DNA of 64,000 nucleotides from contig OZ237744.1 of NCBI GenBank assembly GCA_965178125.1, forward strand, positions 62,001 to 126,000. Reading direction: 5' to 3'. Below, piece by piece: positions 8,982 to 60,500 of the stretch (its first letter is position 1; the number at the start of each line of letters is the position of its first letter). This stretch comes from Bilabrum cf. latius (taxonomy: Eukaryota). Below the pieces are notes generated by a model that was not told the origin of the DNA, ran no database searches, and was given only the letters and a program-made list of their open reading frames with translations. The position numbers were made by a program, and so were the translations under genes.

Positions 8982-9122
8982 CAAAAGTGTAGCGATACGT
9001 TCTGGTCGCAGGTCGCTCGCTCTGCTGGCCAAAACGAGCTTGGAAACTGGATGCAGGACCGGAACCAAATGTTGAGGGGCAGCCCGGCTCCGCCGACGCG
9101 CAAAAATTGCTCGATGCGTGGC

Positions 9123-12100
9123 ATGAGTGCATCAATCGCTAATTTTTTATGTATTGCCAGCCTATGCTGTCTTCGATCAACAGTCGCACTGGAACCCGAC
9201 CGCACAGTTGCAGTTGGCACTTCTCTTGATTTGGATGGGCAGGAGCTTCTCTGTGCTCCGAGAGGATACAATACTTCCGGGGCATCATCCAGCACTCAAC
9301 TGCAGCTAGACGCTCCGGGAGAGTACTTGGTCAGTGACGCTGGGACGAACCGAGTCTTGCACGCGAGCTCAACTGGATACCTTGTGGAGCATCCGGTGCT
9401 ACTGCAAGCATCGTTCACGAATTAGTCGTTGGCGCCAGGGCAGTCATCGTTTGATGGTAGCTCCGATTTTCGCTGCAAAGTGTTTGACGCGGGCGAGTGC
9501 GAGGCAAGCCTTTCCTCGCAAGGATTGGAGCTGCGCCCACCTCATAGCCATGCTGGGATGAACTGCGCACTGCGAGTCTCCGAATAGTCTGCAGCATCAC
9601 CAAAACCAATTGGAGCGGCAGTGAATTTCTTTCTGGAGCCGCTCAGCACGGAAATAGTAAATCTGAAGGTGCAGTAGGGAGCAACTGCCGTTGTTGGATT
9701 CGAGGTGGAGAGGGGCTGGACCAAGACAAACCCACCTCAGCTTGCCATCGAGCTCGGGCCTGGTCTCACTGGCGACCGTTCCAGTGGGGATGAATCAGAA
9801 ACCGTAAGGCTTGTGTCGGCAGGCGCGGGTCCCTTTGGCAACTCGACTGCAAAGGTCCTGTACTCCGTCCCTCTTGGCACCTGCTTGCCCACGCTGCACT
9901 CGTACGGCATACGGGTGCAGCTGCTTGCCGATAGGCAGAACGCTTCGTTTGTTGTCACCTGCGACGGAGGTGCCACTGTGCTCCGATCGCCGACCATGCC
10001 TCACGGCTTCGATCCGACGGCGTACGGACTCTGGTCCAACGGAAGTGCCCTGGTCTTTGCAGGTGCTCGCACGGCAACCGGTGGATTTCGGCTGACCAGC
10101 CGCGAGCGTACGCAAGCCTAGCAAAGCGAACCCCAGCTGAGGCTGCGCGGACTGACGATCAAATCCAACATCGGTGACTGGACTCTGCCAAGCGTGCTGC
10201 GGCCGTACACGGACACCGCACCAGCGACAAGCGCCTCGCTTGGGTCAGACCAGCCGATGCTCCCGAGCCTGGGCATTCTAGATGCCTCCCAGGAGCCCTT
10301 TAACGCGGATGGAACAGGCCGAGAGGACGCCAGCGGTGCAATCCGAGCAGCAATGGAATACGCCAAGAGGGAAGGCCTGGTGACGTACCTGCCGGCCGGT
10401 AGATACCGGATTGAGAGCACGGTGGAAGTGGTTCAGTTGCAGCGGCTGAGCATGGCGGGGCAGATCGATGCCGCGGGATTCGCAACTGAAGGTGCTGGTG
10501 CCTCTGCCCCTGTCACGCTGCGAGGCCATCAGCGACACCCAAGCGGCGATCGCACCGTGCTGTTCGTGCCGCCCAACACGCCTGCATTCTCGAACGCATC
10601 GTCTCCATCCTACATGCTCCACATCTGGGCCGAGTGCTTCGAGTCCTGCGACGAGGTCAAGCCCCAGCCCAACATTGGGTTCAGCAACACAGTGGAGAGC
10701 GTCGACTTCGAGGTGCAGGGAGGCAATCCGGGCGCGGTGGCTTTGCACAACCGAGGGGCACAAGGCACCACCATCGAAGACGTGAGGGTGACTCTGGCAG
10801 GGGACGCTCTGGCGGGGATCATGGGCCTACCGGGGTCCGGTGGCGCGTCTGCCAACGTTACGGTCGTTGGCGGCAGGTATGGGATCGACGGGCGTGGGGC
10901 GCAGCCGGGTCCCACAATCAGCGGGATCCGACTGCTGGGCCAGAGGTGCTCTGGTCTCGTGTACGGTGGCCTAAGCTCGCTGGCTGCGACTGGCGTACGC
11001 ATTCAAACGGCGCGTCTAGGTGACGGTAGCGGCCCGCAGCCCCCGGCAGTTGTCGCCGGGTGCCCCGTCGGCGGCCAGCTCTGGACCAACGCTTCGGACC
11101 CGACTGGCTGCCAGCTTCACACTGACTTACGGATTATTTAGCCTTGCGGCGGCGCTGTTTCGGGCCAGCTGTCTCTCGTTGATGCAGACTTGTAGGTGGG
11201 CTCCTACCGGCTGCCGAGCCGCGCCCAGCTGCCGGTCACACGGCATGTAGGCAGTCACGAGGCCAGCGCGGCGGTCATAACGACTCGCAGCGTGGTGCTG
11301 CAGAACGCATGGATCCGGGGTGCAAACTTGTCCGTGGCCCTAGAGCAGGACGACGGCCTTCCCCTGCATGGTGGAGCATCGGATCTTCTGGGCCCTGGCA
11401 CTGCTGCCGGCAGTGTTGCATCTAGGATACGTTTCTGGGCGAAGGGGCTCCTCCCACCGTTGTATGCGCGGGGCAATCGAACTTGGCAATACACGGCTCC
11501 TGCTGTGGTGAATGGATCCCTTCATGAGACCGGTACTTCTGTTGGGGGCATGAGCCTGTGCTTCGTGGCGACGAGCACTGGGCTGCGACACTCTACCCTG
11601 CGTGGGCTGGTTCCCCACAGCCTACCGCCTTGTGAGCTGCCCTCTAATCTTGTCGACAGGCACACATTTGGGCCAACGCGAACGTTTCCGTCCTGGGAGG
11701 CCCTGTTTGATCCCAATGAGAAAGACCGAGTGTTCAACGTGAAAGACTTCGGGGCACTCGGCGACGGCAAGTCCAACGACTTCGCTGCCATCACTGCAGC
11801 CCTGGCGCAAGCGAAGAGAGTTGCAGAGACATTTCAGGATCACAGTCGTGCAGATTCGAAGCACAACTCTGCTGTCTCTCCTCCAGTGGTAGTGCTGCCG
11901 CGCGGGGCCTACAACGTGAGCAGCACGATTCGAGTGCCCTGCGGAGTGGCGCTGGTCGGGGTGGGGCGGGTCTTCTCTCGTATTAACTCTGCTGCCAACG
12001 CCCGGTTCGTGGCTCCAGCCGTGGCACTTCCAGCGCCAGTGGGGGGCGTGACACAAGGGCCGGTGCTGCTGGTCGAGAAGTGCGACAGTAGCCAATCTAG

Positions 12101-13127
12101 ATCCGTTGATAGCAGGCAAGAGGATGCCCCGACTCACGAGGCTGGGGTGCAGGGCACTAGCAGCCCCGGCGGTCCTCCGGCACTGGGCACTGTCCTATCG
12201 CACATTCTGGTGGAGCTCTTCAACGCCGACAGCGCGCACATAAACGCATCTGTGGTGCTGTGGTTGGGCGGATTCCGAGGAGGGCAGCGGCAGCGGGCCA
12301 TGGACCAGGGCGACCTGGATGAGTACAGCATCGCAAATGTATGGAGGCAGATGAACCTGGAGCGAGGCGGTGTGTGCGGGCCGCTCGGCGGGACGGAGGG
12401 CTGCCAGCCGTGGAGACAGTCGCCCGAAGATGAGCTGCAGCCTTCTGCCTCTCTGCATGCTGATGCTGCGATGCATGCCGGCAGTCTCGGCCAGGTGATA
12501 CCGATTCACATCGGTCACCACGACGAGGCGTGCCTTCATGTGGCAGGGGCAGAAGCATCGCTGAGTGCCTACGATTTCATTAGCGGTTGCGGCGCAGAGT
12601 CAGGGGGCCCAGGATTCCGCCACGTCCTCATGCAGGGGACGAGCGGGCCGGTGCGGTTTTACCACCTCAACGCAGAGAGGAGCATGGGCGCCGCCAACAC
12701 CGAGGTGAGGGGATCTAGCGGAATCCGGATTTACGGGCACAAGACAGAGGGCAACATGGTCGCGGTGTGGGTGCGGGACTCCAGTGACGTCCTTCTGACA
12801 GGGTACGGCGGAAACGCCGCTGCATTTCCGAACACGAGCTCGTTGCCGCCGCCCTACCCTCAGGGGCTGGCCCCGGTGCTCTTCCGGGTGCAGGACACGA
12901 GCGAGTTCCGATTTTACAACCTTGTTGATCTTGGTAGGGTGCAGGGGGGTGTTCCGGGGCAGGGTGCGGGGGAGGGAGTTGACCCTTCCTCTTGGAACCT
13001 GGCGCTGTACCCGATTGGTCGCAACGGGACAGGAGCGACCGGTAGGCTCACACCGGTGCTGGCACGGCCGGTGGTCATGGGTCAGGGCAGCTGGGCTGTG
13101 AACTTGCAAGGGCCGGGCAGTAGCTGA
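9123..13127 (+). CDS. Large secreted beta-helix carbohydrate-active protein (two pectate-lyase-3/GH55-like modules), ~1334 aa, no intron needed
   Basis: Signal peptide MSASIANFLCIASLCCLRSTVA (alternative ATG at 9114). Two N-terminal-type motifs: ADGTGREDASGAIRAAMEYAK..LPAGRYRI and NVKDFGALGDGKSNDFAAITAAL..VVLPRGAYNVS. Single frame through TAG at 9423, 9585, 9675, 10119, 11139 and 11193; ends TGA. Confidence 0.75.
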
Positions 13128-17498: not shown

Positions 17499-19039
17499 TC
17501 AGGATGTATTGATAGGGTCGTACATGCTCCCTCCCGAGCCTCTGCCGCCTTCCGTCCTGGTCCCACTTGAATCGGCGGCCGTGGGCGGCGCACCGGCCCC
17601 ATCCTCACCCACTGGGGGCGGCAGCAGCAACGGCTGGTCTCCACCCTCCCCATGGATACTCGCGCCGCTCGGCCGCCGGATCGGATCACCGCCCCCTGCC
17701 TGCCCTCCTTCCTCCTCGTCCCCACCGGCCCCCGCCCGCCCACCTCCGGCCTCGTCGTTGTCGAACCCTGCGTCCTGCTCGTCGTACGGCCAGGGCCTCC
17801 TGCAAACAGGGCAGGAATCGTTCGTCTTGAGCCACTCGCGGAGCGCCTGCGCCCCGAAGAGGTGGTTGCAACCGGGAAACTCCGACACCTCGTCTCCTTC
17901 TCGGAACGCCTCGAGGCTGATGGGGCAGCTCTCGCCCTCGCCCTCGCCCTCCGACTCCGCCCCAGATCCGCCAGTCTGCTGCTACTGACCAGCGGCTGCG
18001 GCGGTCTGGTGCGCGGGATCCTCCCCTGCGCCCGCACCAGCACTCGTCACACCAGTCGTCTGGTCGTTCGGCCTGCCGCCGCCCTCCTCCAAGGCGTTCT
18101 GCCGCGCCCCCTCCCTGTCCGCAGCACGGTACCGGAACACCGTCAGTTGATCCAGCCGCTACCTCTGCATACGCCTGCGGGTGGCGGGGTCCCGGAGGGG
18201 AATATATCCGAACAGTTCCTCTTCGTCTTCGAAATCGAACCTTCGTCGGTACATCACGCGGTAGGCGTACCTACACAGCACGGCCATGCACGTGCACGCG
18301 ATGATGCCTCCGCCCACCGAGATAGCCACCATGAGGACCAGCTGGAACATGGAGGTGGACGTGCACGGCGTGTTGAGACGAAGCGACATGGACTCCGAGG
18401 TGGCACCGCAGGTGGATGGCGATCCAACGGTGTCATTTGCCGCGCACGTTCTCTGAAGCACGCTCAAGATGCCATCCTCGATCTTTTCGCCAATTCCATG
18501 TTGCATGTTGCACGGCCCGCCTTCGCAGCAGGAGAATGGAAAGCAAAACTGCAGCACGTCCACTAGATTCTCCTCGCCCGTGAAGGGAGATTTCCAGTCA
18601 GCGGACGCTGATACTACCGTGCACCAGCCCGCACCAATACCTGTACAAATATCGCTGAATGCATCCTAAGCCGCAGCATTCGGGGTGAGAGTGACCTGCG
18701 ACCGCCGAGATTGGCAAACGATTTGCAAGCAACGATCTCCAAACCAAGCACAAGCTGTGGCACCGCAGCACTTTGAGAGGGGCGCATCGCATTCAAACCT
18801 GTCGTGCTTACCTATCTTGCGTAACCGCCGAATCCTTGTGCGCTGCCAGAGGCTCGCAACCGTCGTTGCTCCTGAAGCACGTCAGCCTACATCGTATCAA
18901 AGTATTGCAGGTACGCCGATGTGAGATTGACATTCGCAAACAACTTATCGACATCATCGCTACACTAGCTTGCTTGTGAAGCCGGTAAAGATGCGGCCGC
19001 AAAAACGGCTGCGAATATTGCTATTGAACTCCCCGTCAT
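17499..19039 (-). CDS. Type I membrane protein with C-terminal degenerate RING-H2 finger (putative E3 ligase), ~474 aa, one intron
   Basis: ATG at 19039 with signal peptide (MTGSSIAIFAAVFAAASLPASQA); intron 18696-18811; Cys-rich ectodomain; TM segment (LVLMVAISVGGGIIACTCMAVLC); RING CPISLEAF..CNHLFG..WL..CPVCR. In-frame TAG at 18965, 18887, 18812, 18666, 18159 and 17982; ends TGA. Confidence 0.8.
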
Positions 19040-19269
19040 GGTGATTGCACCTGCAGTCCAACCGGGCTCAAGGCAACTTCAGGCAACTAAACCCAAACTA
19101 AATCCTATATTTGCTCGAGATAATTCAAATTTCACTCAAAAAATCGCAGTGAGTATGCAAAACCGCAGCAACAGGTTGCCCTTTCCCGGGCATGTCTGGC
19201 CCCGTCACGGAACCAAGAAAATGCGCGGCGCCGCACGCGACCAAGGAAACTGACGGCCGAATCAAACGA

Positions 19270-20385
19270 TCACGTGCTCCGTGCTTTCTTTGCGCCTCCT
19301 CCAGCTTTACCCCCTGAAGTCCTGCCGCGCTTGGAGCCAGCCTCTCCCCCCCCGTCCCCATCCATCCCGCCACCGGCCTCGTCGTCATCGTCCACCATCG
19401 CCGACGACGAGATCTGGATGCCCTTGCCGCCACCTGCCGCGGATGCAGCCCCCGCCAGTGCCTCAGTGAGCGACATCTCATACCTGGCTTGCTCGAGCTT
19501 CTTCAGGGAGTACCTGCGGTGTGATGGGTGGATGGGAGAGTCCGTTGTGATTGATGGTTTGTGCATACACACTCCAGCGTGCTCGCAGTTGCTGCAAGTC
19601 TGCAACCGCAGTGCACCGCGTGCATGGCACCCTGAACCTGCATACATATATGCACGGCTGGCATTGGCTAGTTTCAGGAATAGGGGCATGGGAGCAGGAT
19701 AACGCGGGAACTCTAGGAAGGAGGGCAGAGGCAGCAGGTTTGGTACCACCAGGACGTCTGCTCACTTCAGCCCATCGCTCTTCTTCCGCAGAGACCCATT
19801 CCGGAAATCAAACCCAAGAACAGCTGCAGACAGCTGCTCCACTGCCTCCAAAGCGCGCTCCACGGCTGCAGTGTCCCTCTTCGCAGCACGCCGGATGGCC
19901 CATCGGACAGACTCCCCGGCGAAGTCCAACACGCCCCCAAGGTACTCGTCGCGGCTGCAAGGCTTCACTTCATCCATACGAGGGATACGGTTTGTGCGCA
20001 GCCAGCACTGGAACACTCGCGCCTCGGCGTACTCCTCCAGGGCAGCTGCCAATGACCCATGCCGCAGATGGGGCAGTCTCTCTGTAACCGGCAGCAGCTC
20101 TTCGTTTGCAATCTTTACGGCCTCCTCGAGCAACTAGTTTGCACGATCATTTTCTTCTCGATGCAGACAATAAATTGCTACTTTGGAATTCTTGAGGACA
20201 TCCCTCGAACGCTTGATGATGCCATCTCGTACCTAGTCGTCGTCTGCCATCTCCTTCGCGAGGGAAGCGAAATGCGCACTGTCCACAACCTAGACGGCAT
20301 CAGGCACAGTCGCTGGCTGCGATGCAGCAGCCGAAGAAGCTGATGCGCTTCCTGTAATTCCACTCGAACTGCTCGAGGCGGCCAT
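19270..20385 (-). CDS. Translin/TRAX-family protein, ~287 aa, one intron
   Basis: ATG at 20385. Motifs VRDGIIKRSRDVLKNSKVAIYCLHR, ALEEYAEA, DEYLGGVLDFAGE and FDFRNGSLRKKSDGLK|YSLKKLE across intron 19514-19765. In-frame TAG at 20290, 20233 and 20134 in the N-terminal region; ends TGA. Confidence 0.92.
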
Positions 20386-20686: not shown

Positions 20687-23095
20687 TCACTCGTGAACAA
20701 TCACAGGCCCTGCCATGGTGGTCCTGGTCGGCAGCCGAGCCGCCTCTGCGTCTGGATCCCCCGCCCTCCGTGCCTCCTCCCCGCCCATGCCCCTGTAGAA
20801 CTTGCTGTACCACAGCGCCACGGGTTCTCGGAGGCATGCCTTGTCCCCCACACGCTCCTCCATCCCGAGCTTGTGATCCTCCTGGCTGTCCAGACCCGCT
20901 GGCTTCTTGCCCATCGACGTGAAGTGCATGGTGAACACCCCGTCGTCGTACCCCGTGGGTCCCTCCCTGGGCCTCCAGGCCTTCCTCGCTTCAGAATCAT
21001 TCGCGTGGGGCTCGTAGGGAATCCGCACCATCAGCTGGGACCCGTACAGGAGCTCCTTCTCTTCCGCTGTCAGGGGGCGGAAGTGCCCTGTGGACTTGGA
21101 CGAGCCATTACCACTGCCACCGACCGTCGCATTCCCCTTCGATTGATTCTCCTTCTCTATTTGCTCGTCACCGGCTGCATCCTTTGATTCTTGCTCACTT
21201 TTTTCGCCGGTCAGCTGCCTGCTGCTGCCAGCAGCAACAGCACGCCAAGTGCCGTTCCAGAACGATTTGACTACCTCCACTGGGGGCTACTCTGGCCACG
21301 TGCCATGGATATGCCGCGTTAGGGGCCGCAGCTGCTACTTGGCATTCTTTGAAGGCAAAGTCAGAAGCCCTCTACTCTAGGCCCCAGCGTCCGCTTCCGC
21401 GACCAATTCCTTGTCCTTGCCTGCCCCTTCATGGCTCTCCGCGCCTGCTTCCGTCCCGTTGTCCTTGCCTGCCCCTTCACGGCTCTCCGCGCCTGCTTCC
21501 GTCCCGTTGTCCTTGCCTGCCCCTTCATGGCTCTCCGCGCCTGCTTCCGTCCCGTTGCCTTCACCCGTGCTGTGCTTCTATACATTGCCCTTACCTTGCC
21601 CCGTTCGCTTCGCCCTCCTCTCCGCAGCCAGCTCGTAGAACCTCCTCAGGGGAGGCAGCGGCTTGTCCACGGGCCTGCCCTTGCCGCAGGGCACGGGCAG
21701 CGCGGGGTCGCACCCGATGGCCCGGAGGTACCCCGGGATGGCCTCTTTCTTGTCATAGTCGAACCCGGGCGGGTGCATGGGCGGGCCGTACCACTCGTCA
21801 TACGCCGCGCTCGGTGGCCGCGCCTCCCTCTCTTTCTTGGAGGCGTTGAGGGGCGCGGGCCAGCGCATCCTCAGCCTGGCCAGGAGGTCGAATTCCACCT
21901 TGCGCCTGGCACGGGAATGCTCGGGGGCGGACCGAAGTATGCGCTCTTCGCGTGGGGTTGCAACCGCCCGCCAGGGCTCTGCGAATCCGGCCTCCACCGC
22001 GCTAGCCCGGGACAATCCCAGCCACTTGGAGTTGCACACACACATGTAGGCGATCTGGTCGTACCTGGGGTCCAGGAAATGGATCAGGGGCATGCCTTTC
22101 TGCCTCCTCTCCAGCTCCTTCTCGGGCAAATAGCCCTTGGGTATGGCGGCCGGTGCCCCCTTCCTGGGGTCCTTCCGCTGCCCCTTGGCGTAGTCGGGGT
22201 CGACGTACTGGACGTTGGGAATGTAGCCGTGGTCCTGGTCTGCAGTGTAGGGCCAGTAGTCTGTAGGGTCACCCTCGTGCCACGTCTTAGTGTACACCGA
22301 CCGAATGACGGCCATGTCTCCCTGCCGCCACTCCTCCTTCTGTGGGAGTGGCTTGTGCATCATGTCCTCGAAGAACTTGATCCTTTCCTTGGACGGCTTG
22401 AGGCTCCAGGTGCCCCCGCCCACCTTGCCGCCCTCGTTCTCGTTGCAAGCGTTCCCAGTTAGCGCGCAGATGAGCTCGTCATCCGTGAGCAGCAGGTGGT
22501 CTATGTTCCTCTGCACGATGATGTCCGAGTCCATCCAGAGCACCTTGTCAAACTCGTAAAAGCCCCACACCTTGAGCTTGCTGAGAGCCACGCCCCAGAA
22601 CGTGTTCAGCCCGCCCGCTACCTGTTTATTGTACTTTGTTTCTTTGAAGGCGTCTACCACTCGCACTTGGACGCCGAGCCGGTGAAACGCACGCAAATAC
22701 GCAGGTGAGGCCACTGCAAGCGGGCTCCTCGATGAGCCACACGATGTCTCGCCTTGCAGCAGCACGCTTTCCGCGTTCATCTTGCAGTACTGTGAACCCG
22801 TTGTTGGCTGGACTAGCATCGCAATTAGATTCGGTACCTGAGTTCCTACGTCCCGAAGACTCTGGAAGAGAGCCACGGCATTTCTGGCCGAATCGTCAGT
22901 TGCTGCCATCGTAACTATAGCTTTTCTCGACAGGTCGCTAGTCGCTAGCATTGCAGACATGAGACCACTGGATCGTAAATTGCGGCTGCTTCCATTAATT
23001 GCAGGGCGTGAAGGCCCAGAACTAGTATGCAATCCAACGGAGACTGGTGTGTACGCCACACAAACGGCTACTGCTACAACCCAAGCTAGCCCCAT
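20687..23095 (-). CDS. Glycosyltransferase family 8 protein with long C-terminal extension, ~802 aa
   Basis: N-terminal hydrophobic leader MGLAWVVAVAVCVAY and GT8 motif KLKVWGFYEFDKVLWMDSDIIVQRNIDHLL (DxD). The frame continues through TAG at 21578, 21377, 21335 and 21287 into the 20687-21280 ORF; ends TGA. Confidence 0.82.
21411..21554. repeat. 48-bp tandem repeat x3 within the GT8 gene (encodes NGTEAGAES[H/R]EGAGKD)
   Basis: Units start at 21411, 21459 and 21507 and are identical except for one substitution in the middle unit. Confidence 0.95.
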
Positions 23096-23253
23096 ACTGG
23101 AGTATGTTTCCAAGACCCTGGAGCAAGAGAAATCAAGCAAGGAAAGAAATAAAATCACGAGAGAGAGAGAATAGATATATATGTATCAAAGCACACACTA
23201 CCCAACTGCAACGACCACCCCGTGGGGCAATCGCATCAGGTAGGTCGAACGGA

Positions 23254-23740
23254 TCAGCAGGCTAACGCCGCAGGGTTCGCAAGCTGGGCTGCTCCTCCGT
23301 GGGGGTTCTGCGTTGCTTGCAATCCTTCGGCGTTCGCATTGCCTTCGTGTTCGATCGCGTCCGGATCAGCTGCCTGATCTGCTGCCTCACCATCAGCTCC
23401 TGCCGCAGGTGCGACGTTCACTGGTGGTATGACAGGCTCTTCAGCTGCCTCCAAACCCATGCCCTACGCACCGCCAGCCCCACCAGCCTGCTGCAGTGCC
23501 GCTCCGAGCTGCGCAGCCTCCGCTGCCACTTGCTCGTCCACTTGACCACCAGCTCCTGCTGCGGCCACTCCTTGTACACCAGTTGGTGCCATCTGCTTCA
23601 GCTGCTCACAAACGTTAAGGTTGAATTTGTTCGTGAAAGCGGCGTTCCGCATGGCCACCAGTCTGGCAATATCCCTGGCCCAGAACCTGACCTGGGCATC
23701 CACTGACTTGCTCCCGTTCTTCCCCAGTCGCTTTCGCCTG
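23254..23740 (-). CDS. Hypothetical Ala/Gln/Glu-rich ORF segment, 5' structure unresolved
   Basis: ORFs 23464-23703 and 23254-23460 share a frame, joined by TAG at 23464, and end TGA. A pyrimidine tract and CAG near 23738 look like a splice acceptor, but no clean upstream exon could be joined. Confidence 0.35.
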
Positions 23741-23988
23741 ATGCGTGCAAGCAGCTAGAGCAAGAGAGAGAGAGAGAAAATAGAGTTTTTGCACGCAATT
23801 CAATACCAGAGACAATCCGAGGACTGCCACCAAAGTAACGCGCACCTTAACAGGGGACCCAGCTGTACCCGCGTTGGCGGAGCCAGTCAGGACCTGAAAA
23901 GGCCTCTGAAGAAATAGTTGGTCTGGTTAAGACCGATACATGCCTAGGACCCGTGTCCTAAGCGCATCGCGTTGAGATCTCCTGGGAG

Positions 23989-24504
23989 TCAGACCCAGTC
24001 GAACGTCCGCAGTGAGGGAGCATGCGCGAGGAAGGCCTGGCGAGGCGTGAGGCGTTCAGCCTCTCGCCACCAGACCGCCACATAGTCCGCCTCTAGGACT
24101 TGTTGCCTGCTCCAGATCCGGGAGCGTGCTAGCCTTGCCGTTCCCTTCGCCCAGATGCGTTCTAGCACCTGAAGCTCCTTGCTGAGGGCGCAACGGCCCA
24201 GCGTTCCTGTCATCCACTCTCCGATGAACTAGTTCTCGGAGGGATTCAGTATGTGTCCGAGCGGTTGGGCTCGGATTGCAAGGTCTCGGGCTGTTGGGCT
24301 GCCCGAGCTGAGTTGTTCAGCTACGCACAGTTGGCAGGACTACAACCCCTCGATGGCTCGTCCGAAGCTCTCATTGGCCCTCTGCTACAAGCGTCGGATT
24401 GCACGTCGGCACCGTTCTTGGAGTTGTTCGAGGGTGCCTTGGACGATAGAGAGCTCCAAGGAGTCTGCGTCCCCTCGGTGTTCCTGTGTCAGCACCTGCT
24501 TTCG
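23989..24504 (-). CDS. Possible hypothetical ORF or gene relic (~170 codons with TAG read as sense)
   Basis: Frame free of TAA/TGA from 24504 to the TGA at 23989, with TAG at 24385, 24340 and 24229. No recognisable motif or clear start. Confidence 0.25.
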
Positions 24505-24697: not shown

Positions 24698-27600
24698 ATG
24701 CTAGGTAAGATGGATGTTGTCTACACGCTTGCAAATATAGAGGCGAAGTGAAGTGATAACGCCCCGCTTCCCTTGCGCCACAGGAGAGCAATACTTGGAC
24801 TGTTGACGAATAAGGTGCTAAGTTGTCCACTTTTTCCTATATCGTTAATACAGGCAAGAACTAGCAAGGCGGAAATGCTCGCACGTCTCAGGTGGCCCCT
24901 GCTGTTGCATCGAAAGGCTCGAAGTCAGGTAGCTCCAAGGCTAGCACCGCACCGGATGAAGCCGATGTTCGCCGCATTACTGCAGCAAACACGAAAGGTC
25001 AGCACGCAGATATTAACGTTCTTGACTAGATCAAGCTCGGGGGCGGTGCCGGGCTAGGTCTTGATGACGGAGACCAGCAGGAGTCGGCGCTCGACAACTT
25101 CATCAAGTCTTGGAAACAAGGAATTAACGAACTGTTCCATCTTTTGCTTCGGGCGCCTGAAATGAATGGGTGGCTCCAAATTGGGTTGCTGTGCTTGGAG
25201 GCGCTCCAGGTCCTCTCGTTTGCGCTCTCGTACTCGAAGAGTTTGCCGTGGCGAGATACCCCAGCCGTCCGTCCCGTATCTGCCGCGCTGAACGTCTTCA
25301 ACCTGGGAATTCCGGAAGGAACATTTCCATAGAGCGGTAGGCTTGGTATCCTGTATGCCGTGCTGGTCGTTGTGATCCTTGTTGGCATGGCTAGCGTCTG
25401 GCTCGTGCAGCAAGCCACGGCACTCGGGGCCGAGCACCGGGCCAGGCTCGAGAATGGTGCCGTGCTTAAAGTTCTACGCTCGACCATGCAGATCCTCGCC
25501 ATGGGAGCATTCATGCCGATCGTTGGCGTGTTTTTCGACCCCCTCCGCTGCGAGGTCGGCAAGACTTGGAACGGCGGCCCGCACGCCTGCTGGGAGCCGG
25601 TGCACCTCGTCGCCGTGGTGGGCACGCTCCTGTGCCAGATCGTCTTCATTGGATGTGTTGCGCTTTACACTGTTGCTGTCGTGGATAGGAACCCCAAGGC
25701 AAATTCCAACCGGTTCGCCGCGGCGCACGGCAGGTCTCGCCTGATGGTGCTCGGCATCCGGACCATGCTCGTGCTCGTGTTCACCCTCGACCGGGTGGTC
25801 CCCTTCTGGATGCTCATCGCTGTGCTCGCTGCTGCAGGGCTTTCTGAGCTTTATGTAACGGTGACGTACCAGCCGTTCTACCGGCACTCCACCAACCAGT
25901 TTTACGCCGGGATGGCGATCCTAGAGGTGTGGGGAGCCCTCCTGGCGCTCATCGGGATCATGCAGCGCGGCGGCAGCGCGAACTTTCCGGCGGGCGCCGG
26001 CCGGAACCAGGAGAACGACATCGCGTTCATTTTCTATCTCGCCGGGCCGTTCGTGGCGTGGGTGGCTGCCGCGTACCTGAGCTACCGCTTCCGTTCCCTG
26101 GACGGCGAGGTCGAGCTCAGCTCCGTATACCTCGTCGAGCTGAAAGCGCGCCGCATCCTGCAGTCGGCCGGGACGGGATAGCGAGTGGACAAGCGCCTCG
26201 GGTTCAACGGTGGGTCTGCGGGCGATTCGGCCAGCGGCCTTGCCCAGTCGCAGGCCCTTGCCAGCAGCACGGGCTCGGGCGACGAGAGCAGAGGTGGGAT
26301 GGATGGCGTGTCGAACAGCCGGGCGGCGGCAGCCATCGACGAGGCCGAGACACTCCTAGCCGATGCACTGGAATTCTTCCCCAACAACACGATGCTGCAC
26401 GTGTTTGTGCAGATTTTCCTGGCTGCCTATAAGCCCAACAAGCACCTGGAGGCGTCTCACCTGGCTGCTCTCCGCAGCAAGGAGCCGGACTTTGACGAGA
26501 ACTTTGTGGCCTTCCATCGGAGGCAAATCCTGAGCGAGCAGGCCGCCAAGACCATGGGCGGATCCATGAACATCCAGAACCGAGTCCGCTTCGAAGAGTT
26601 CCAGCGCACCGCCGAGGACTACGAGGTAGAGGCCAGGCAGAAGACGATCGACTTCCTCAACCATCTCGTTGCATCCAGCCCGGACATCGGGGTGCTCAAC
26701 ACCTTCTCGAGGGACGTGTTTGACGCCCAGAGCAAGGCCGAAAACGCCTTTGCCCAGCTTCTCTCCATCAATCCGAGGAGCGTAGTGGTCCTCAGGCAGT
26801 ACGCGCAGTTCCTCCTCGAGACGGCCAATCAGCCTATCCGGGCGCAAAAGGTGAGGCCAGCGTTGTACCCGTGCAGCAGCACACCGGAACATGACAATTA
26901 TAGCTGCTATATCTAGAGTAACTCAACCCATGCTTCTCTCTTGTTTTCATGAAACCCATTTGCCGCAGCTGCTGGACGAAGCGGATGCGCTCGAGGATGA
27001 GGCCAGCCGCATGCACCAGGACCACGCTTCCAAGATCGATTTCATGTCACAGGACATCGAGATCGATGTTGCAGCAGAGGGCATGGGCGTGGTGCTTTGC
27101 AGCGACAATCCCTCCAATCTGGGCGAGATCCTGCAGGCCAACCCTGCCGCTATCCGCGCCTACGGTTACACGCGAAAAGAGCTCATCGGCAAGAACGTCG
27201 CGATGCTGTGCCCTGAGCCCATCCAGAGCATGCACGATTCCCACATCCTGAATTACCTTAGGACGGGCAAAGAGACTATCATGAACACGAGCCGTACCCT
27301 CTTCAGCCTCCACCGTGCAGGACACATCTTCCCAGTAGTGCTGGCGTGAGTGCGGTACTCGTCCAGTGCATACCGCGTTCGCTCTCATCTGACCGTATGG
27401 CCGCCCCAACCAGATTGACCACAGCCGCAAGCTTGTTTATCCGTACTTAATACATACCGTCTCGCAGTGTTCGTTCCATGGAAGGAGGCTTCGGTGGCCT
27501 CATCCAGGAGATCCGAGGGGCAGTCGACGGGTTTATCATGCTGCTGGGCAGGACGGGAATCATCACTGGGGCATGCAGCAAGACCATGCAGATGCTCGGC

Positions 27601-33497: not shown

Positions 33498-33681
33498 CAC
33501 TTGCCATTGCTGCTAAATACGGTTGAACTTGTGGAGAGATTCTTGCGACAGGTTGCGACCGGCGGGCCGCCTTTCGCAGATCAACGGACCTTCGCGCGAT
33601 GCGAGGTTTCACAGCAATTTTGCGCAGGTACCAAGCACATTTGGCCTGCAGCTAGAAGCAATTCACTTGTATCATATAAAT

Positions 33682-45600: not shown

Positions 45601-48177
45601 CGGTCGCTGGGCCGACTGGTGGCGTACGCCCGCTAGGCATCCTTGAAGTAGCAGCAGCGCGCTTCCAAGGCAAAGAACGCGCTCGAGTCCCAGATGAGGG
45701 CTCGCAGCGACCTTCGCCCAAAGAAGTTCTCGCCGCTTGGACACGCCGATGTGCCGTGGGCCATCGTGCCCGCGCTGATTCGCCTGCCCGACAGCATGCC
45801 ACTCATGCAGGCCATTGAATCCTACCCTCCTCGTGCGGGTTCCACGGAGCGTGCTGCGCTCGCGTTTGGAGGCGGTGTCGATTTCAGGCACCACATCTGC
45901 GGGGAGGGGCACCAGATCCGCGACTCAGACGTGGGTTCAGGTGAGGTTTTGAGTTCGCGCCCGCCGCTGCGTCGGGACCTCTCTCGCTCTAGTGGTCTGG
46001 AAGAGGCTCATATGGTTAGTGCGGATGTCCCTTCTGGAGCCGATGGCTCGCACGCCGTGGACAGCTAGCACCTGATGCGATCTGCCATGGCCGAGGCAGA
46101 GGCTCTCCATCGGCGCCGATGGGATGCCGCGGAGGCCAAGCAATCGTCTCCCCGTGGTAGTGGCAAGTCGAGGGATGCAAGAGGCCATGGCAACAAGACC
46201 GCGAGCGGTGACAGTGACGCGAGCGACGATCGCGATGCTTCCGCAGGCGGTGCGTCGTCCGGTGGGATGAGCGAGATCAAACATGCCGTCAGGTACGGCT
46301 ACGCAACCACGGAGGCTGAGATTGTCGAAGCACAGCAGACTGCACCTGGCCTGCTTGTGGCGATGCTTGTCCCAGGGGTACTGCATGAGGGCGGTGCACC
46401 TGGGGCGGCTGCCGGCGCATCCGGCGGCCAAGACGCATCCGGTGGTGACACCAGCAACCCTCCTTACGGCAGGATGAAGCGGTCTCTCTCAGGGCGCTCT
46501 CTGACTGACGATCACACGGACGCGGAGAAAGCGGCCATGGTGGCAGATGCAGTGAAAGGAGTACCCGAGGCCGTGGGAGACGACGAAAAGGCTCCGTGGA
46601 GCAACAACACGGGCGCGACGACAGCCGTGAGTGATTTGCCGTAGGCTGCTGCTGACGGCTCAGATGGCACAACTCCCCCTGTGCGCGTGTCCAGTGGAGA
46701 CGCCTGGCCCAAGCTGCAGGTGACTGGCGACGGAAACGAGGACACGACAGGCTCCAGGGCGCCAGGCACCGAGGGACGCATCTTCAAGGCAGCCACCGCG
46801 GCGCCCGGTTCCGCTGGGGCGCCCGAGGGTGATTCGAGTGCGGTCGGTGGTGCCGCAGCAGCCAGCGGATCTCGTCGATCGTCGCTGCCTTTCGCTCCTG
46901 CTGCGGCTCGCGCCGCTGCAGCTGCAGTGCAGCGGGGGGCTGAAGACCCCATCCACGTGTTTGCCACGGCCCCTCCCGCACAGGGGTGGGCTGTCAGCAC
47001 GCAATCAGCAAAGAGATCAGCAGACAAACCCCCTCGTCGATCCAGAACGCAGCGGCTGGCGCTGTTAGCAATGGATGACACGGTCACTGCATCGCAGGAA
47101 GGCGACCTGCCGGGAGCATCCAGCGGTGTGCTGGCTGTGGGACCCACGCGTGGCGGTGCTTCACCAACTAGGCGCGCCGAGGCCGTATCGAGGACACCCA
47201 CAGATGCACTGGCCGCAATGGCGGAGCGCCGTGGGAGCATGGCTGGCGTTGGTCTGTCCGCGCACGAGTGGCCTGAGCTGCGTGCGATTGAAGGCATGGA
47301 TGATGAGGACGGAGCTCTGAGAGACGGGTGGGGCAGGCGGTACTCCTCCACGCTTGGAGGTGAGACCGAGCACGAGCATCAGGGTGGGAAGGGCGGCGAG
47401 GGTGGCGACTCGTCCAGCGGAAAATCACCCCGAGGCCGTGATGTGGACGGAGGAGCTCGCTGGGAGCTTGCCTTCCCTAGGACCTTTGAGCCAAGAGCGA
47501 TTTAGGGGCTGGTCCAGCGTCCGTACGAAGCGTTGGGCGAGATGCTGCGCGGGGCTTCCGGTGAGAACGCGAGCGCCGGCACGGATGGCTCTGGTGGTGG
47601 TGCCACGCTGCTGATGTCCCTGGTGCGGGCATCCCGCGATCGTCTTAGGAGAGAAAGGGGCGCAGAGGGGGCGGTGCTTAGGCTCCGTGCAGCCAAGGCC
47701 GCCCTGTCAGGTGCGGCTCCCGGTGGTTTGAGCGGTCGGAGCAGCCCTCGTGGCGGTGTTGGCATGGGGACCGGGCTAGGAGAGATGGATGCTCGGCCCG
47801 GTACGGCGCAGAGCTACCTGGGCGAGGCGGGTGAGGCTCGCCTGGCTGTGATGGAGGCGCTCGAGGAGATCGGCAGGGAGTTGGTCGCACGATCGCCGGC
47901 GCCGGGCATGCTGCAGGTGGTCGCAAACGTGCTGTTTTGCGCGAGCGAGGTGGCGGTGGCTGAGCTGGAGAGGCTCGGGCTGACCAAGGGAGAGTCCGGC
48001 GTTATCGACATGCACTCGGGGCAACTCGCGCTGAGCTCCGCCAACACGACCGCAATCGACAGCGCGGCGATGCCCCCGCGGGGCCTGTACGTCACCGTCA
48101 TCGAGCGGGCCAGCATACAGAGGGGCATGCTGGAGAAAGGGTCTCGACATGCCGGCGGCGGCACCACCATGGTGTGA
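33682..48177 (+). CDS. Giant armadillo (ARM)-repeat protein, ~4759 aa, two short 5' introns and a 13.9-kb terminal exon
   Basis: Exons 33682-33714, 33804-34155 and 34283-48177 (introns 33715-33803 and 34156-34282, phases compatible). Many ARM repeats (IAATLHNLSC..LVAEGGVQALLSLL, CIRALCNVS, CLAALRNLS, CVQALHNLL, CALGLFNLA). Thirteen listed ORFs lie in one frame; 15 TAG (34303, 34357, 34783, 35941, 37660, 38911, 40477, 41998, 43492, 44224, 45634, 45649, 46066, 46642, 47503) and no TAA/TGA until the TGA at 48175. Confidence 0.88.
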
Positions 48178-48486: not shown

Positions 48487-51400
48487 TTATCTTTCTCGAC
48501 TTGCTACTATTTGCAAAAGCTCCCGGATCCCCTACACCGAAACAGGCTTCAGCAGCACATTTTCTGCCCCACACTCCTTGAAATGCTCAACATCCTCCGG
48601 CAGAGCATTCCCCGTCACGCCCACCACCGATATGCCTCGTACAGACTCGCGCTTATCAGCCCTAAGCCGAATCACCATCTCAGGCCCAGACATGCGCGGC
48701 ATTGAGAAGTCCAGCAGTACCAGCCGCACGGAGCACCTGGCGGCATCGACAGCGCCCGCACCACCACCGTTCTACACCTCCTCTTCAATAACCTCCAGCG
48801 CATGCACCCCGTCGCTGGCCTGCAGCACCCGAGTACCCTTCCATGCCGCCGGCATGCACCGCTTAACGATCGACGCAAGCAACACGCGATTAGAACGGCT
48901 GTCGTCCACAACGAGCACGCAAGGGGTGCGGGAGGTGAAAGGCAGCTCGCGGGGATTTGGCCCAGTCCCTGCTCTTGCAGAGGCTCCTGCGGGAGCATCA
49001 CTTGTAGCACCGGACCTAGGCACATCACGGATTGCCTGTAGAGCCGGTCTGCTGCCTTCCCCGGCCTTCTCTCGCTTTTTGACCACCCGCCTTTTCTTCT
49101 TCTTTGAAGGGGTACGGTCTTCACTTGGCGGTCTCGCGGTACCCGCGACCTTGAGCGCAGCAGACGAGCCATCGTTCGTCGGTTCGAAGCCCAAACCAGG
49201 ACGAGATATTCTTCGTACTTCGAATCGATTTGACTCATCTGACCCGTACTTTGTGGCGCTAGCATTCGCGATCTCCTTGCCCACCCGAGCATGGCTCGTG
49301 TCGGCGCTGCGATCATGGGGCTTATCGCCTGAGCCTTTTGGTGCCACATCCACAGTTTCAGCTCGCAGCCACAGGAAAAAGATGCTGCCCGCACCTGGAC
49401 AGCTGCTGAACCCGCAGCAGCCCCCGTGCAGCCGTAGCACCTGCGCCGCCACAGCCAGCCCAAGCCCCGACCCCTGCCCCTCCGATGTGAGGATCCCCGA
49501 GTGCAGCCCGTCCAGAGCAGAGAACACCCCGCCCCAGTCCCGGCGGTCTATCCCGTTGCCATTGTCTAGAACCCAAAGGCACACGTGCTGCTGAGATGCG
49601 CCGTCAGAGAGCAGATGTGTGAGCTAATCTGGACCTGCGTCGCGTTCCGGCGGCAAGGCATCCTGCCCTTGAGTCGTCACCAAGTCACGGTTCATGCTGC
49701 TCCTCTTCGACGCGCCTCCATTCATCTGCAAATCGGGTCGCGGAGTGGGTAAGGAGCGCTCGAGCTGCAAGTATTGGCCCGCACTCGCTGGTTCCACGCA
49801 ACAGACGCCCATCCTCTCATGAATACTCCCGTCTGTAGGGGCTTCCAAATCGGCAGGCTTCTCCTGCTCTTTCCCGTCAGTGAGCGAGACAGTGGAGACC
49901 AGCCCTGCTACTGCTGCACTGTTCGGCTGACTGTGCGTGTCTACAAAGTACTTGCTGCCGGTCTTGGTTGTCCCACTGCAAGCCGCGCCCCCGATGGCAG
50001 GGCCGGGGAGAGGCGGACCAGCCGATGATGCTAGATACACTGGCGGCTCGTCGGCATCAGTATCACGCCCCACTTCCTGTGGCATTCGAGAAAAGAACAC
50101 TGTGGCATTGCGTCTTACCGTAGGTCCGACTACGGCGGCCTTGGCACTGGGAGGCCCTCCTTGCCCGGTAGGGTTAGCCTCAGCATCTTCCACGACAGCA
50201 CCGAGGCCAGCCTGCCCCGCCACGAGGCTGGCTGTGCGGATGCTCGGTCTGCTGCTGCTGCTGCCAACGGTCACTTCTGCCGGGCCTACGGATGACTCGC
50301 TACGATCAGTTGTTTCAGTAATCGATGAATGCATGCCTTCAGAAGCATCAACTGAGCTCGACTGGGGCTCATGCGGCAGCTCAGCCTGCAATTTCGAGCG
50401 ACCATCAAAAACGACGCGGCACAATCGACCAGCTGTTGCTTTGCCCATCATATTGACGGCCCTGGCCCAATCTTGCTGAGTCCATAGATGCGGAGGTGCT
50501 CGTGAGCTGCCAATGAAGACAGATGATAGCGCACTTGCACTAGCAGCCGCACTGGCTTCCCCTGCTTCCTCCCGAGAGTCCCGTACGCTCCAGTGGATCG
50601 CGTTCGAAATCAGGGTGGTCAGCGCGGCCTGAAGCTTTTCAGAATCAAGATTGAAGCTATGATTCCACTGGCCAACTGACGCTGGCACCATCGAAGAAGA
50701 CAATTCGCTTGACTCGCGTTCCTATGAGGCTTCGGCCAGCTCTAGCTCGGTCCCGGATAGCAAATCTGTGTATTGGAGACGCACCTCGGAATGGGAAGCC
50801 TGCACGCTGAGACGGCCAGCCACTGATCTCAGGAGAGCCTCATCGATTCGAGTTGGTACTTCACGAATGCTCATGGTTCTCGTTTCTATCTGCTCCAAGC
50901 TGACCACATCGTTCAGCGTGGCCTGCATCGACTGTGCAGCTGTCTGCATCGACGGGATCACGGTCCGAAGCGAGCTAAGGGAGCCTTCCAGAGTAGGCTC
51001 GTCGTGGAAAGATCCGGACATGCTGGTGGGTTGCACATCACGTGGAGATTGCAACCAAGCGTGCCTCCTCCGTGTTCCATCGGCTGCCGCCTGCGCCTCC
51101 TTCGCTGCGTCGCTGGCGAATTCCAGACCCAGCACCACCGAGTTCAGAGGCACCCTACACTCGTGAGATACGAACCGAAGCCGCGCTCGCAGCGCAGCTG
51201 CGTGCTTATCCGCTTGCTTCACTGCCATTTCCAGCTCGTCGGATTGGACTGCAAATAGGTGCAAGGCAGCAAGAACCGACATACGCAGCACAAGCCATGC
51301 GAACCGCCAACCAACCTCGACTGTAACATAAACAATCGCTGCATTGTGCCAGTGGCGGCCGAGAAGGTCTGCAATGCTACTTCTCGCCAACTCTGAGTCT

Positions 51401-52209
51401 TTGCAGGGGAAAAATCCTCGTATTCCAGCAACTCTGGTGTATGCGCACGTGCAAATATTCGTTGGCTGCACGAGTGCGGCATCTTGCACAACGTTGGTGA
51501 TGACGAAGTGCAATAGGCACGCTGTAGCTAGTCCCTTCAGCACGCTCGCTAGAAAAACTGTTCTTGATCTGACTTGCTGCACCAGGGCAGCCCCAAGCTA
51601 GCTTTGCGCCGATGGTCGCAAGCCAAGCCCGTCACTGTCGCTGCTGCTGCTGTCGTGCGAGGCAAATGGCGTGGCATCACGCATCAGACCCTCTGCGACG
51701 CAGAACAAACTTTGCTTACTCTAATGGCCAATGCGGGACGCTGTACCAGATTGATTTACACTGGTGGGAGCCACTGCTGTGCTACGGTTGCGAAAGCACT
51801 GGCACGACTGAACACCTGGATCCAAGCCCACCAGCGCAGTGCGATAGAACGCATACACATCGCCACCCCGGAGAAGCCAATTCATGGTGGCATCATTGCC
51901 CGTCCCGGGTGCGACGGTCCTGTTCGTACGCCGAGTGTCGTCATCATTTGCCAGATTGCCGCGAGCTCCCATACATTCGCAGCTGCAATTCTCCTTGAAG
52001 TAACCACGCTCAACGGAAGCGAGGTATTCGCTGGCACTGTCTGGCGTGAATTGAGTGCCATCTTGTGAGAGAGCAGCAAGTACCACAAGCATCTATCTCT
52101 GACCCATACGCAATGCTGAGTCCAGGCCGGGGTTCGGCTGTGGTTTGGATTCTTTGCGACCAGCGGATCCGCCTGCGGGAACTGAACTGCAAGTCGGGTT
52201 GCAGCATGA

Positions 52210-52261
<52 letters not shown>

Positions 52262-57500: not shown

Positions 57501-60500
57501 TCCACCCGCCTGTCGTTGAACTCGAACCAGCCTGCATCCTCGTCCAGCTCCAATTCTTTCATGGCTGCCTGCAGCGCGCCGTTCTGCCTGGTTTGCAGGT
57601 GATGGTCAGTCAAGCCCGCCCAGGACACGGCGCCCTCGCCCCGCAGCGCGCTCTCGGCAGCCTGCAGCAGCTCCGCCGCCTTCTCCTTGGACTCCGGAGC
57701 CTTGGGGGCCTTGAGCACGACAGGCAGTCTGCGGTCGCGGATGAGGCTGTAGTAGTGACCGGCTTGAGCCGTGCCTCTGTGAATGACCACACCGCTCAGC
57801 AGGAAAACGGACCTGCACGGCGCCTCGCTCTGCGATGTGAGCTCTTCGGGGAGGGCGGCAACGCTCGGATCCGGGGTGATGCTGGGACTGGCGGACGGCT
57901 GCTTGCTCTTTAAAGGGGGTTGTTTCGGACTGATCTTTCCTCCTTCCGCGTCTTCCGCAGCTGCCTGTGCTTGCGCCTTGATTGCGTCTCTGTGCCGCCT
58001 GGCAAGGCCGGCTGCCGTGTACGGGTGCATGTCCAGTACGTGCGGGAACGCATAAAAATCGTTCACCTTCTTCATCACGAAGGTCTGCATGTCAAACGCA
58101 AAGCGCCTCAGGTGGAGAACCATGTGTGGCGGCAGCGACTGCAGCATCTGTCGCTTGGAGGTCCGTTTCGCGACGCTTGTAATCGCGCCATCCGGGCTGC
58201 TATCGTCCAGCTGCTCCCACTTGTAGTCATCGACCACATCCGCCTCCATGGCGGCATCCAGCCCTTCCTCCAGGGTGCTCTTTCCCTCTACAGGCACAGA
58301 GAGGAACTTCGAGGGCTCTAAGCGGGTCTTGAAGTACCGCAACTTGCTGGCATGCTCGATCGTAACAGGGGGTTCGCCTGCGCTGTCAGTTTGCTAATCC
58401 GACTGCCGCTCGCCGCCATCCAGCACGCTCACCTGCTCAATGTCAAGAATATCTGCGAGCATCTTTCTGTGTGTGGTACCGCTGACGGAATTATCAATGA
58501 TCTGGAAAAGTTTGGTGAGGAACTCGCTCGCGTCCTGCTGCCTGCTCGTGTCGACCGGCGCGCCGTCCCACTGCAGCTTCTTGCAGAAATGAGAGGGATC
58601 GTGGTACCTCATCTGCGACTCTTGCAGGGAGCCAAATACTCGCTGTAACTCGTACATGAGCTGTAGGTCAGTTTCATCCGTGCCCTTGCAACCGTAATCG
58701 CAGCTGAATAGGCTGCTTTCTCCTGCCGCGCTAGGCTCCTCGTCACCGGTGCTGACGTCCCACCGAATGACAGGCCTCTCGTCCTCTGACGTGTTGTCGA
58801 AGGAAAGAACAGCTTTCCTAAATGGCAGGATCATGAAGAACTGCTGCAGCGAACTGTTCATGTAGCAAGTGGAGCCCAAGTTGTGAAGACCAACGAACCC
58901 CGTCTCGCTGCGTTGTGCCGAGGTGGAGGCTACGGCACCGCTCGCAATATCCCAACGGTCCCCATCCGTGCCCTGAATCCTACCTTTGGCAGACATTAGG
59001 GCGTCCATGGAAGGGACAGACAGCCACAACGGCAAATCGGGGAAGCTCTCGATGAGCTCGTCGGCCTGCTGCGCTGCCTGCCTCGCGACTGCCGCTGCGG
59101 GGCCGCTAGCTGGGCCGTGCTGCGAGGCCAAGAGACGTACTACATGCTCGTGGCACTCTGGCCGCCCCCTGCACAGCGCAGTCAGCATCTCAAGCGCCCT
59201 CGATCGGCTGATCTTGGTCTTGGCCATCGGAGCCATGGCCTTATCGGCACGGTTCTGCTCGATCAGCCCAGTGCTTGCCCCCGTGGCCTGGCCCCCAAAC
59301 GCGAAGAGCACCCGGAACCAGAGCCAGTTGAGAAGCAGGGGCGCCCCCTTGGCGATCGTGTCGTCTGTCGAATCCGTCCCAGACGCCAGAGCGGTGGCAT
59401 CATCTCCATTGCCAGAGGACCTTCCAGCTGCAGAACCAGTGCCAGGGCCTCTTTCCTTGATCTGAGCTTCCCGCCCGATGAGCCCTGCGATTGCCATGAG
59501 CATAGAGACGAGAGCTGTGTCCCTCGAGTCTGTGGACCTGGTTTCTGCAACTGGCAGTGCTGCCGCTTCCACAACGAGCCGGGCAAAGAGGCTGGCAGAG
59601 GATGATGGCGCAGCCACCCCGATGGCTCTGCAAAGGGCGCGCATCATGGTCGAGAACGCCATGGATCTGGCCCTGTGCTTGCCCCTGGTGCTTGGCATCA
59701 TGGACAGGCACCTGTCAGCGAGAGCGATGAGAGGCGCGTGCGCGTCCATGGACCTAACCGCGCGCTCGGCCGCCTCTTGCGACATTGCTGGGGCATGCTC
59801 TCGGGCAGCAGAGAGGAGGGTGGCCGACGCCTGCGCTGCTAGCTGAAATGCCAGCCTCGTGGCACCGGCGCGAGCGTGGGGGTCCTTGGCCACAAGCGCG
59901 CAATCGAGCAGCTGCTGCTAAAGATTCGAAACTCCAGCAGCTGAGCTACCGCTTTCGCGGGAGGTTCCATCCTAACCGCAGTCGTTTCGAAGGATGTCCA
60001 GCGCCGCAGCTGCACGGTCATCGGCGCTCGGCAGCAGCCCGATGGCTCTTGTCAGTAGCCTGCCAGCCCACAGCATGGCAGCTCCTGCAGTGCTGCACAC
60101 CTCTTCAGACGGCGAAGACTTGGAGAAGCCCAGGCCGCTCGCCCAAGCAAGCGGAGCCCTCCGCGCTAACTGTGTGTTGGACGAGGCTCTAGAGGCGAGC
60201 CGGATGACAGCCAGACCAGCAGCTATCAGCTTCGTGTGAACTTCTGGCGCGGGCATCCCAAACACCGATGCCAAATCTACCGGCTGCGCGCCTTCGGTGG
60301 ATGGCTCTGCCTTACCAGCATCTTCACCGCCATCTTCGCACGGAGCATGCAACGATGCCATGATGCACAGCATTCGGCACGCGATTGCAGCGGACGCGAG
60401 CTGCATGGCCCCTGCCGACCTGCAGGCCGCGTCAGCTGCCGCAACCACCGTACCATCTGCCGCGCTTGAGCTCTGCCTCTCGAGCCCGGATGCGGCCGAT

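Follow-up and report, generated by a model that had tools for sequence, protein, structure and literature searches.

UAG is very probably a glutamine codon, with UAA and UGA as stops, in the nuclear genome of a bicosoecid stramenopile

In the last exon of a gene for a transmembrane RING-finger protein, the minus strand reads CAG-TAG-CAG-CAG in frame, which raises the question of whether TAG is translated here and, if so, as which amino acid. The motif lies in a window of 64,000 nucleotides, the whole stretch of DNA that was analysed (G000:C10:62001-126000), from a genome of 48.6 Mb in 111 contigs. The initial annotation of this window held that TAG, embedded among glutamine codons, is a synonym of CAG. 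Both the motif and its frame are confirmed, and the gene around it is organised as follows.

17976..17987, minus strand: CAG-TAG-CAG-CAG (read as four Gln) in a low-complexity linker, the TAG being 17982-17984; identical in spliced contigs of runs X1, X2 and X3
17499..18695, minus strand: last exon of the transmembrane RING-finger gene, with TAG at 18666, 18159 and 17982 and a TGA end at 17499-17501
17799..17930, minus strand: RING-H2-like domain (Pfam PF13639, zf-RING_2, E 4e-10, 40.3 bits, cut-off 27.3)
18696..18811, minus strand: GT-AG intron of 116 nt, joined in X1, X2 and X3; the joint is absent from X5
18812..19513, minus strand: exon with the first ATG at 19039 and TAG at 18965, 18887 and 18812
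19514..19765, minus strand: GT-AG intron of 252 nt in the 5' leader

Translation from the ATG at 19039 gives a protein of 474 amino acids with a signal-like start and a transmembrane helix. The RING domain begins 18 codons downstream of the motif, and all six TAG codons of the gene lie upstream of it; the domain itself is without several zinc ligands, Ser, Gly and Ala replacing Cys or His. All six TAG codons are covered by the spliced contigs (runs X1, X2 and X3, from two studies, taken to be RNA from their spliced joints, with no run on record as RNA), and no other letter occurs at any of them (0), bearing in mind that contigs drop rare variants and would hide low-level editing. The TAG codons of the RING gene are kept in the mature mRNA, neither spliced out nor edited.

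Six further contexts had been cited alongside this motif, and each is indeed an in-frame TAG with the neighbours described.

9675..9677, plus strand: TAG after CAG in a pectate-lyase-like gene (Pfam), frame 8808-13127 with 6 TAG
21335..21337, minus strand: TAG before CAG in a GT8-like gene (Pfam match under its cut-off), frame 20687-23185 with 4 TAG
24862..24864, plus strand: TAG before CAA in a TmcB-like frame, 24814-26952, upstream of the first ATG; may not be coding
45649..45651, plus strand: TAG before CAG-CAG in an ARM-repeat gene, frame 33517-48177, 4886 codons with 16 TAG
58394..58396, minus strand: TAG before CAA inside the USP-domain span
59918..59920, minus strand: TAG before CAG-CAG in the USP gene, 4734 codons with 24 TAG, whose frame runs past the window

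Once TAG is read through, chains of abutting short frames become frames of up to 4886 codons; shifted frames of these same window genes contain ~300 TGA each. Between the GT8-like and TmcB-like genes (23200-24500), X5 depth rises 20-40-fold over variant copies of a high-copy repeat. To speak of polyglutamine runs at the TAG sites was an overstatement, the runs being 2 to 4 codons long.

Nor do seven hand-picked contexts identify Gln by themselves. Across 11 window frames trimmed to the first ATG (16,976 codons), Gln provides 9 of the 141 neighbours of 71 TAG codons against a shuffle mean of 5.25, an excess within chance (164 of 2000 shuffles reach 9; p ~0.08). Lys neighbours are equally raised (1.8x), CAG's own Gln neighbours stand at 1.03x, and a neighbour-profile classifier was uninformative in the window, ranking Gln eighth. 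With about ten times more sequence (156,319 codons and 765 TAG, from 44 non-redundant frames of contig C10 and 39 dynein pieces), the expected enrichment of Gln beside TAG proves real, with 89 neighbours versus 62.8 expected (1.42x, p 0.001; 1.48x for CAG) and 14 TAG-plus-two-Gln triplets versus 4.0 expected, with the members of a tandem family and three shadow frames left out of the triplet and end-of-frame counts. It is not specific, however: because TTG (Leu) has 1.36x Gln neighbours and TAG-plus-two-Lys occurs 9 times versus 3.8, context alone does not single out Gln.

Homologue columns do. We used 19 dynein heavy-chain genes (39 pieces, 96,804 codons, 431 TAG), 18 of which form one frame over the fetched stretch with TAG read, the other having a short break, and aligned the pieces to the best 40 of 268 homologues with one near-identical fragment excluded; columns backed by 20 or more homologues hold 199 of the 431 TAG, and the other 232 were dropped. 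Where columns are at least 90% conserved, 20 of 24 TAG face Gln, 2 Glu, 1 Val and 1 Tyr, so that the proposed synonymy with CAG stands and neither Glu, Leu nor any other residue dominates. At the same threshold CAG faces Gln in 266/330 and CAA in 23/32 columns, and the controls behave similarly (GAG-Glu 453/513, TAC-Tyr 339/375, TTG-Leu 130/138). Lowering the threshold to 70% gives Gln 27/48 and Glu 11/48; this Glu excess over CAG and CAA (64/667) has a stratified p of 0.037 in one of nine tests and is absent at the 50% and 90% thresholds. The pooled TAG profile (Gln 22, Glu 13; CAG has Gln 25, Glu 12) correlates at 0.993 with that of CAG, 0.99 with CAA and 0.55 with GAA, and the log-likelihood for TAG is +98 for Gln and -174 for Glu, the next residue. 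In the genome's own paralogues, TAG faces Gln at 20.2% and Glu at 11.4% of sites (CAG 22.2% and 11.8%), and Tyr at 1.1% versus 0.7% (TAC 41.6%).

Individual genes agree. The motif WDTAG-x-E/D has 10 matches, in which x is encoded by CAG in 5, by TAG in 2 and by other codons in 3; both genes with TAG at x are Rab-type GTPases, and their TAG falls on the switch-II Gln, which in Rab GTPases has a catalytic role. The release factor gene eRF1 carries one TAG at position 44, where 89/94 homologues have Gln, and a second at position 69, where 89/95 have Leu and 6 have Gln; in P0273 and P0276, two near bicosoecid rows, the residue there is Gln. In a sister lineage represented by metagenome contig L110, eRF1 has TAG where this genome has CAG, at one of five Gln codons, with 37/64 four-fold sites differing. 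The anticipated CAG/TAG polymorphism thus appears between orthologues and once between paralogues, and strains show no difference at TAG sites among the 40 differences listed. Most paralogue codon pairs are misaligned or frameshifted, leaving that single clean TAG/CAG site, which belongs to a tandem family at G000:C10:158560-190449 with two interleaved genes, 11 copies and frameshifted variants. TAG is a minor codon that accounts for roughly one in ten Gln codons. Its share declines with GC3 (rho -0.67, n=27), and such avoidance in high-GC3 genes is what one would expect if a single tRNA gene serves the codon. Five low-GC3 dyneins (L076-L079, L082-L083, L088-L091), several longer than 6000 codons, carry 3 to 10x more TAG.

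Gene ends show that TAA and TGA terminate genes and are unused inside them. At the homologous end, the 13 dynein ends fetched (13/13) are TGA in 10 and TAA in 3. In the ER-retention test, for which 30 of 45 matches were examined, the 4 real gene ends are all TGA and none of the 8 examined TAG matches is a convincing gene end. The eRF1 gene ends in TAA, and TGA ends 49/58 long frames. Among the 13 dyneins, 4 ER proteins and eRF1, no conserved gene end falls on TAG. The code in which UAR is Gln (table 6) was rejected, as TAA ends conserved genes. Taken together with the homologue columns, these ends argue strongly that the nucleus uses a variant code in which UAG is Gln and only UAA and UGA are stops, a reading that we hold with high confidence.

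The last codons of genes nevertheless give an alternative some footing, namely that UAG is dual, Gln inside genes and wholly or partly a stop near some 3' ends, with TGA or TAA as back-up nearby. Over the last 15 codons of the 44 non-redundant C10 frames, whose ends were taken from DNA frames, 10 of the 25 Gln-class codons are TAG, versus a share of ~0.12 inside; over the last 30, dyneins included, there are 17 TAG versus 8.0 expected, an excess that 6 of 5000 permutations reach. One frame ends TAG-TGA, and eRF1 keeps its GTS, E55, NIKS, S70 and YxCxxxF elements. Against this, the excess appears in one of three frame sets: it is absent in the 13 dyneins alone (1 TAG in the last 30 codons) and in 31 other frames under a high-GC3 filter (3/34 vs 34/510, p 0.5). 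TAG is also read close to ends, once 19 codons before the conserved end of a dynein and once at the following site.

48532..48534, minus strand: TAG 14 codons before TAA, within the receiver domain of a hybrid histidine kinase

The PF00072 match of this kinase extends to residue 1895 and so spans the TAG at codon 1889, which means that TAG is read close to the gene end. (The same gene, window 48487-54198, encodes 16 cysteines in a row towards the N terminus.) With no conserved end on TAG, and with relic stops extended by a few codons predicting the same excess, we consider a dual UAG unlikely, and prefer to see in the excess the ancestral stops of genes that would since have been extended by a few codons.

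How UAG might be read is suggested by a tRNA with a CUA anticodon at G000:C23:907607-907679 (minus strand, 69.8 bits), the best-scoring nuclear tRNA match, which is single-copy and adjoins a gene with an in-frame TAG. As 63 of 780 tRNA candidates were scored, three pattern searches were added (7, 44 and 2 matches); at the loci checked from them there is no second CUA tRNA and no UUA tRNA, bearing in mind that the patterns miss intron-bearing tRNAs. The motif of the CUA tRNA has 0 matches in viral contigs. We propose that this tRNA would pair with UAG and not with UAA, and would receive Gln, probably from the single cytosolic GlnRS that we found.

Its sequence is a mosaic. Set against the tRNAs recovered from this genome, which do not include Leu(CAA), Ser(CGA), His or Asp, it has 50 positions in common with tRNA-Tyr, 42 and 39 with the two Gln tRNAs, 42 with Glu and 38 with Trp, the last too few for tRNA-Trp to be kept as its source. 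With tRNA-Tyr it has in common 12 of 14 acceptor bases, C1-G72 and the 5-nt variable loop. Twelve acceptor bases are reached by 2 of 224 non-isoacceptor pairs; the link to tRNA-Tyr is suggestive only, since four pairs exceed 50 matches overall. It agrees with tRNA-Gln(UUG) in the D stem, in the T loop and at A37 and G73, but the G1-C72, C2-G71 end common to both Gln tRNAs of the genome is missing. Simple membership of the tRNA-Gln isoacceptor family was rejected (closest to Tyr; C1-G72; a 5-nt loop against the 4-nt loop of Gln), as was an ordinary eukaryotic tRNA-Tyr (C1-G72 and U35 are present, but with G73 and C34). In the available text of PMC9976931, eukaryotic Tyr identity comprises A73, C1-G72, G34 and U35, G73, G2-C71, G10, U35 and A37 belong to the Gln set of E. 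coli, and a eukaryotic Gln set is not given; yeast amber tRNA-Tyr variants take trace Gln from E. coli GlnRS, according to the part of PMC1483225 consulted. These mixed identity elements and the trace charging make it plausible that the tRNA began as a suppressor derived from tRNA-Tyr and gradually acquired Gln identity. A diverged tRNA-Gln stays a rival origin, because the two Gln tRNAs are themselves alike at no more than 39 positions.

Two other tRNA observations are recorded here. The tRNA-Trp(CCA) at G000:C40:414993-415065 (L273) has an A-C mismatch at 31-39 and a 4-bp anticodon stem; none of the genes examined hints at internal TGA. A Met-labelled family in G000 (C3:1133102, C9:698618, C25:323122, C5:282086, C7:1154419, C3:1096994) has an acceptor stem almost identical to that of tRNA-Pro(UGG), three copies having an odd anticodon loop and low scores, and may possibly represent another identity switch.

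A mosaic tRNA might also be charged loosely, and UAG would then be ambiguous, standing for Gln in most cases and for Glu or Tyr in the rest through mischarging by GluRS or TyrRS. The Glu excess at the 70% threshold, one dynein TAG at a column with Tyr in 38/39 homologues, and C1-G72 and U35, two of the eukaryotic Tyr identity elements (PMC9976931, as available), fit this idea. The pooled TAG profile nonetheless equals that of CAG, Tyr in the genome's own paralogues is as rare as given above, TAG occupies invariant Gln sites of Rab GTPases, and the tRNA is without A73 and G34, so we regard ambiguity as quite improbable. That TAG is a stop or an artefact (pseudogenes, sequencing error, introns that remove it, or U-to-C editing to CAG) is barely credible, even though contigs drop rare variants and could hide low-level editing: frames of thousands of codons are interrupted only by TAG, DNA run X5 and the spliced contigs from X1, X2 and X3 have the same TAG, which refutes the idea for the RING gene, and TAG recurs in the essential single-copy genes for eRF1 and GluRS and in the independent sister contig. 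Another single residue (Leu, Glu, Tyr, Ser, Trp, Lys or pyrrolysine) can be dismissed with near certainty, for although ARAGORN labels the tRNA tRNA-Pyl, eRF1 column 69 is a Leu column and the acceptor stem is Tyr-like, all others lie at least 270 log units below Gln, which refutes them at the sequence level, the genome has no PylRS match, and the tRNA has no long variable arm.

Under the preferred code, eRF1 would have lost most of its affinity for UAG through changes in its stop-reading N domain. Its gene (G000:C35:455550-457423; L051:1551-3424) has three introns, and the protein is changed at 18 of 84 conserved N-domain columns versus 9 of 141 in the M and C domains; the same count gives 7/86 (N) and 11/142 (M and C) for Cafeteria and 10/86 (N) for the relative P0276. 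The N-domain changes include G29A, N30D, I35V, S60V, L69Q, F117P and K130H, of which N30D, I35V, F117P and K130H have no parallel among 87-96 homologues, and the UAG-critical residue T32 is unchanged. In yeast assays, L69A read-through was slightly higher at UAG and N30A was without effect, as described in the available part of PMC4381064, so no single change is a proven cause. The gene needs two UAG read as sense within its own N domain, which would amount to negative feedback if eRF1 still competes at UAG. The cytosolic GlnRS is changed at 10 of 55 conserved anticodon-domain columns versus 6 of 146 catalytic ones, a count made without a matched control. One GluRS was likewise found (G000:C15, L104:1799-4093), with an in-frame TAG directly before its EFSRL motif.

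Sequence comparison places the host, a flagellate of marine type, as a bicosoecid stramenopile near Cafeteria. The best named matches are Cafeteria proteins (dynein 60% identical, eRF1 69%), and in two single-gene trees the query joins Cafeteria with a support of 99 (dynein, FastTree) and shares a clade supported at 99/95 with it and with Bicosoecida sp. CB-2014 (eRF1). Cafeteria is taken to use the standard code, and the eRF1 of C. roenbergensis/burkhardae, the closest named relative, has the standard G29-N30, S60 and L69. A metagenome scan of 80 loci yielded one true sister contig, L110, with 93% protein identity and in-frame TAG. On a separate bicosoecid branch, metagenome contig L152 (1-1310) holds an eRF1 gene with two in-frame TAG and a TGA end, whose product is differently and strongly altered (QIKS, Ala at 70), possibly a second TAG recoding; L149, between the query and L152, has no in-frame TAG in its eRF1, the one gene compared. 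The 38-kb mitochondrion reads TGA as sense, and 23/23 of its long frames end in TAA. An 18-kb contig carries a further, unrelated eukaryotic 18S gene (G000:C95:6099-7900, L092), which differs from the tandem 1700-nt array on C12, is presumably dinoflagellate-like and probably comes from a co-assembled organism.

The codon table is that of NCBI translation table 15 (TAG as Gln, TAA and TGA as stops), for which the crAss-like phage cases are said to involve bacterial release factors. To our knowledge, UAA and UAG almost always change meaning together, and the few uncoupled nuclear codes known come from transcriptomes or partial assemblies. Among these, the nuclear code of Iotanema spirale, with UAG as Gln, UAA kept as a stop and an altered eRF1 N domain, is the most alike, but this organism is an unrelated fornicate, its eRF1 has T32G where T32 is intact here, and its tRNA is only predicted, as a mutated tRNA-Gln(CUG), whereas the tRNA found here is not closest to Gln (PMC5304391, part of the text). 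The ciliates Hartmannula sinica, Trochilia petrani and Protocruzia tuzeti likewise reassign UAG alone to Gln; in the available text of PMC11687900, UAA is the near-universal stop of recoded genomes, whereas TGA dominates here, and neither H. sinica nor T. petrani yielded a suppressor tRNA. The rhizarian exLh also uncouples UAG from UAA with a change at eRF1 position 69, but with UAG as Leu and L69A (PMC5304391, in part), where this genome has Gln and a TAG at 69, the residue of 6/95 homologues. The UAR = Gln code of Tetrahymena, hexamitids and ulvophytes (PMC11687900, in part) agrees at UAG and differs at UAA: in the present genome TAA ends genes, and the tRNA searches gave no UUA anticodon. 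For the UAG = Gln cases, the available texts of PMC5304391 and PMC11687900 report no tRNA.

No nuclear stop-codon reassignment in a stramenopile appeared in the literature searched, which takes in few subscription papers; the word stramenopile is absent from the available texts of PMC5304391, PMC11687900 and PMC10553269, and that of PMC13768787 holds no such case. An earlier report may exist, though we think this rather unlikely. We offer, tentatively, a more specific reading: that this would be the first stramenopile nuclear stop reassignment, made by a route that had not been foreseen for codes of this kind, in which an amber suppressor copied from tRNA-Tyr (GUA to CUA) then switched to Gln (A73 to G73, A37 and the D stem of a Gln tRNA) while GlnRS and eRF1 changed along with it; that old TAG stops would persist as Gln codons before new ends; and that L152, with its different eRF1, would have been recoded separately.

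For this lineage, standard-code annotation cuts short most genes, as the public fragments P0262 and P0271 illustrate. One 48.6-Mb assembly of a GC-rich, TGA-ending genome holds the tRNA, GlnRS and eRF1 together, and Cafeteria serves as a named standard-code control, so two questions become testable: how eRF1 drops UAG yet keeps UAA and UGA, and where the reading tRNA came from. A tRNA/eRF1 pair freeing UAG alone is also relevant to genetic-code expansion in eukaryotes. What is found here is a known, rare type of code in a new branch, where a single assembly supplies an unusual tRNA along with the full translation toolkit.
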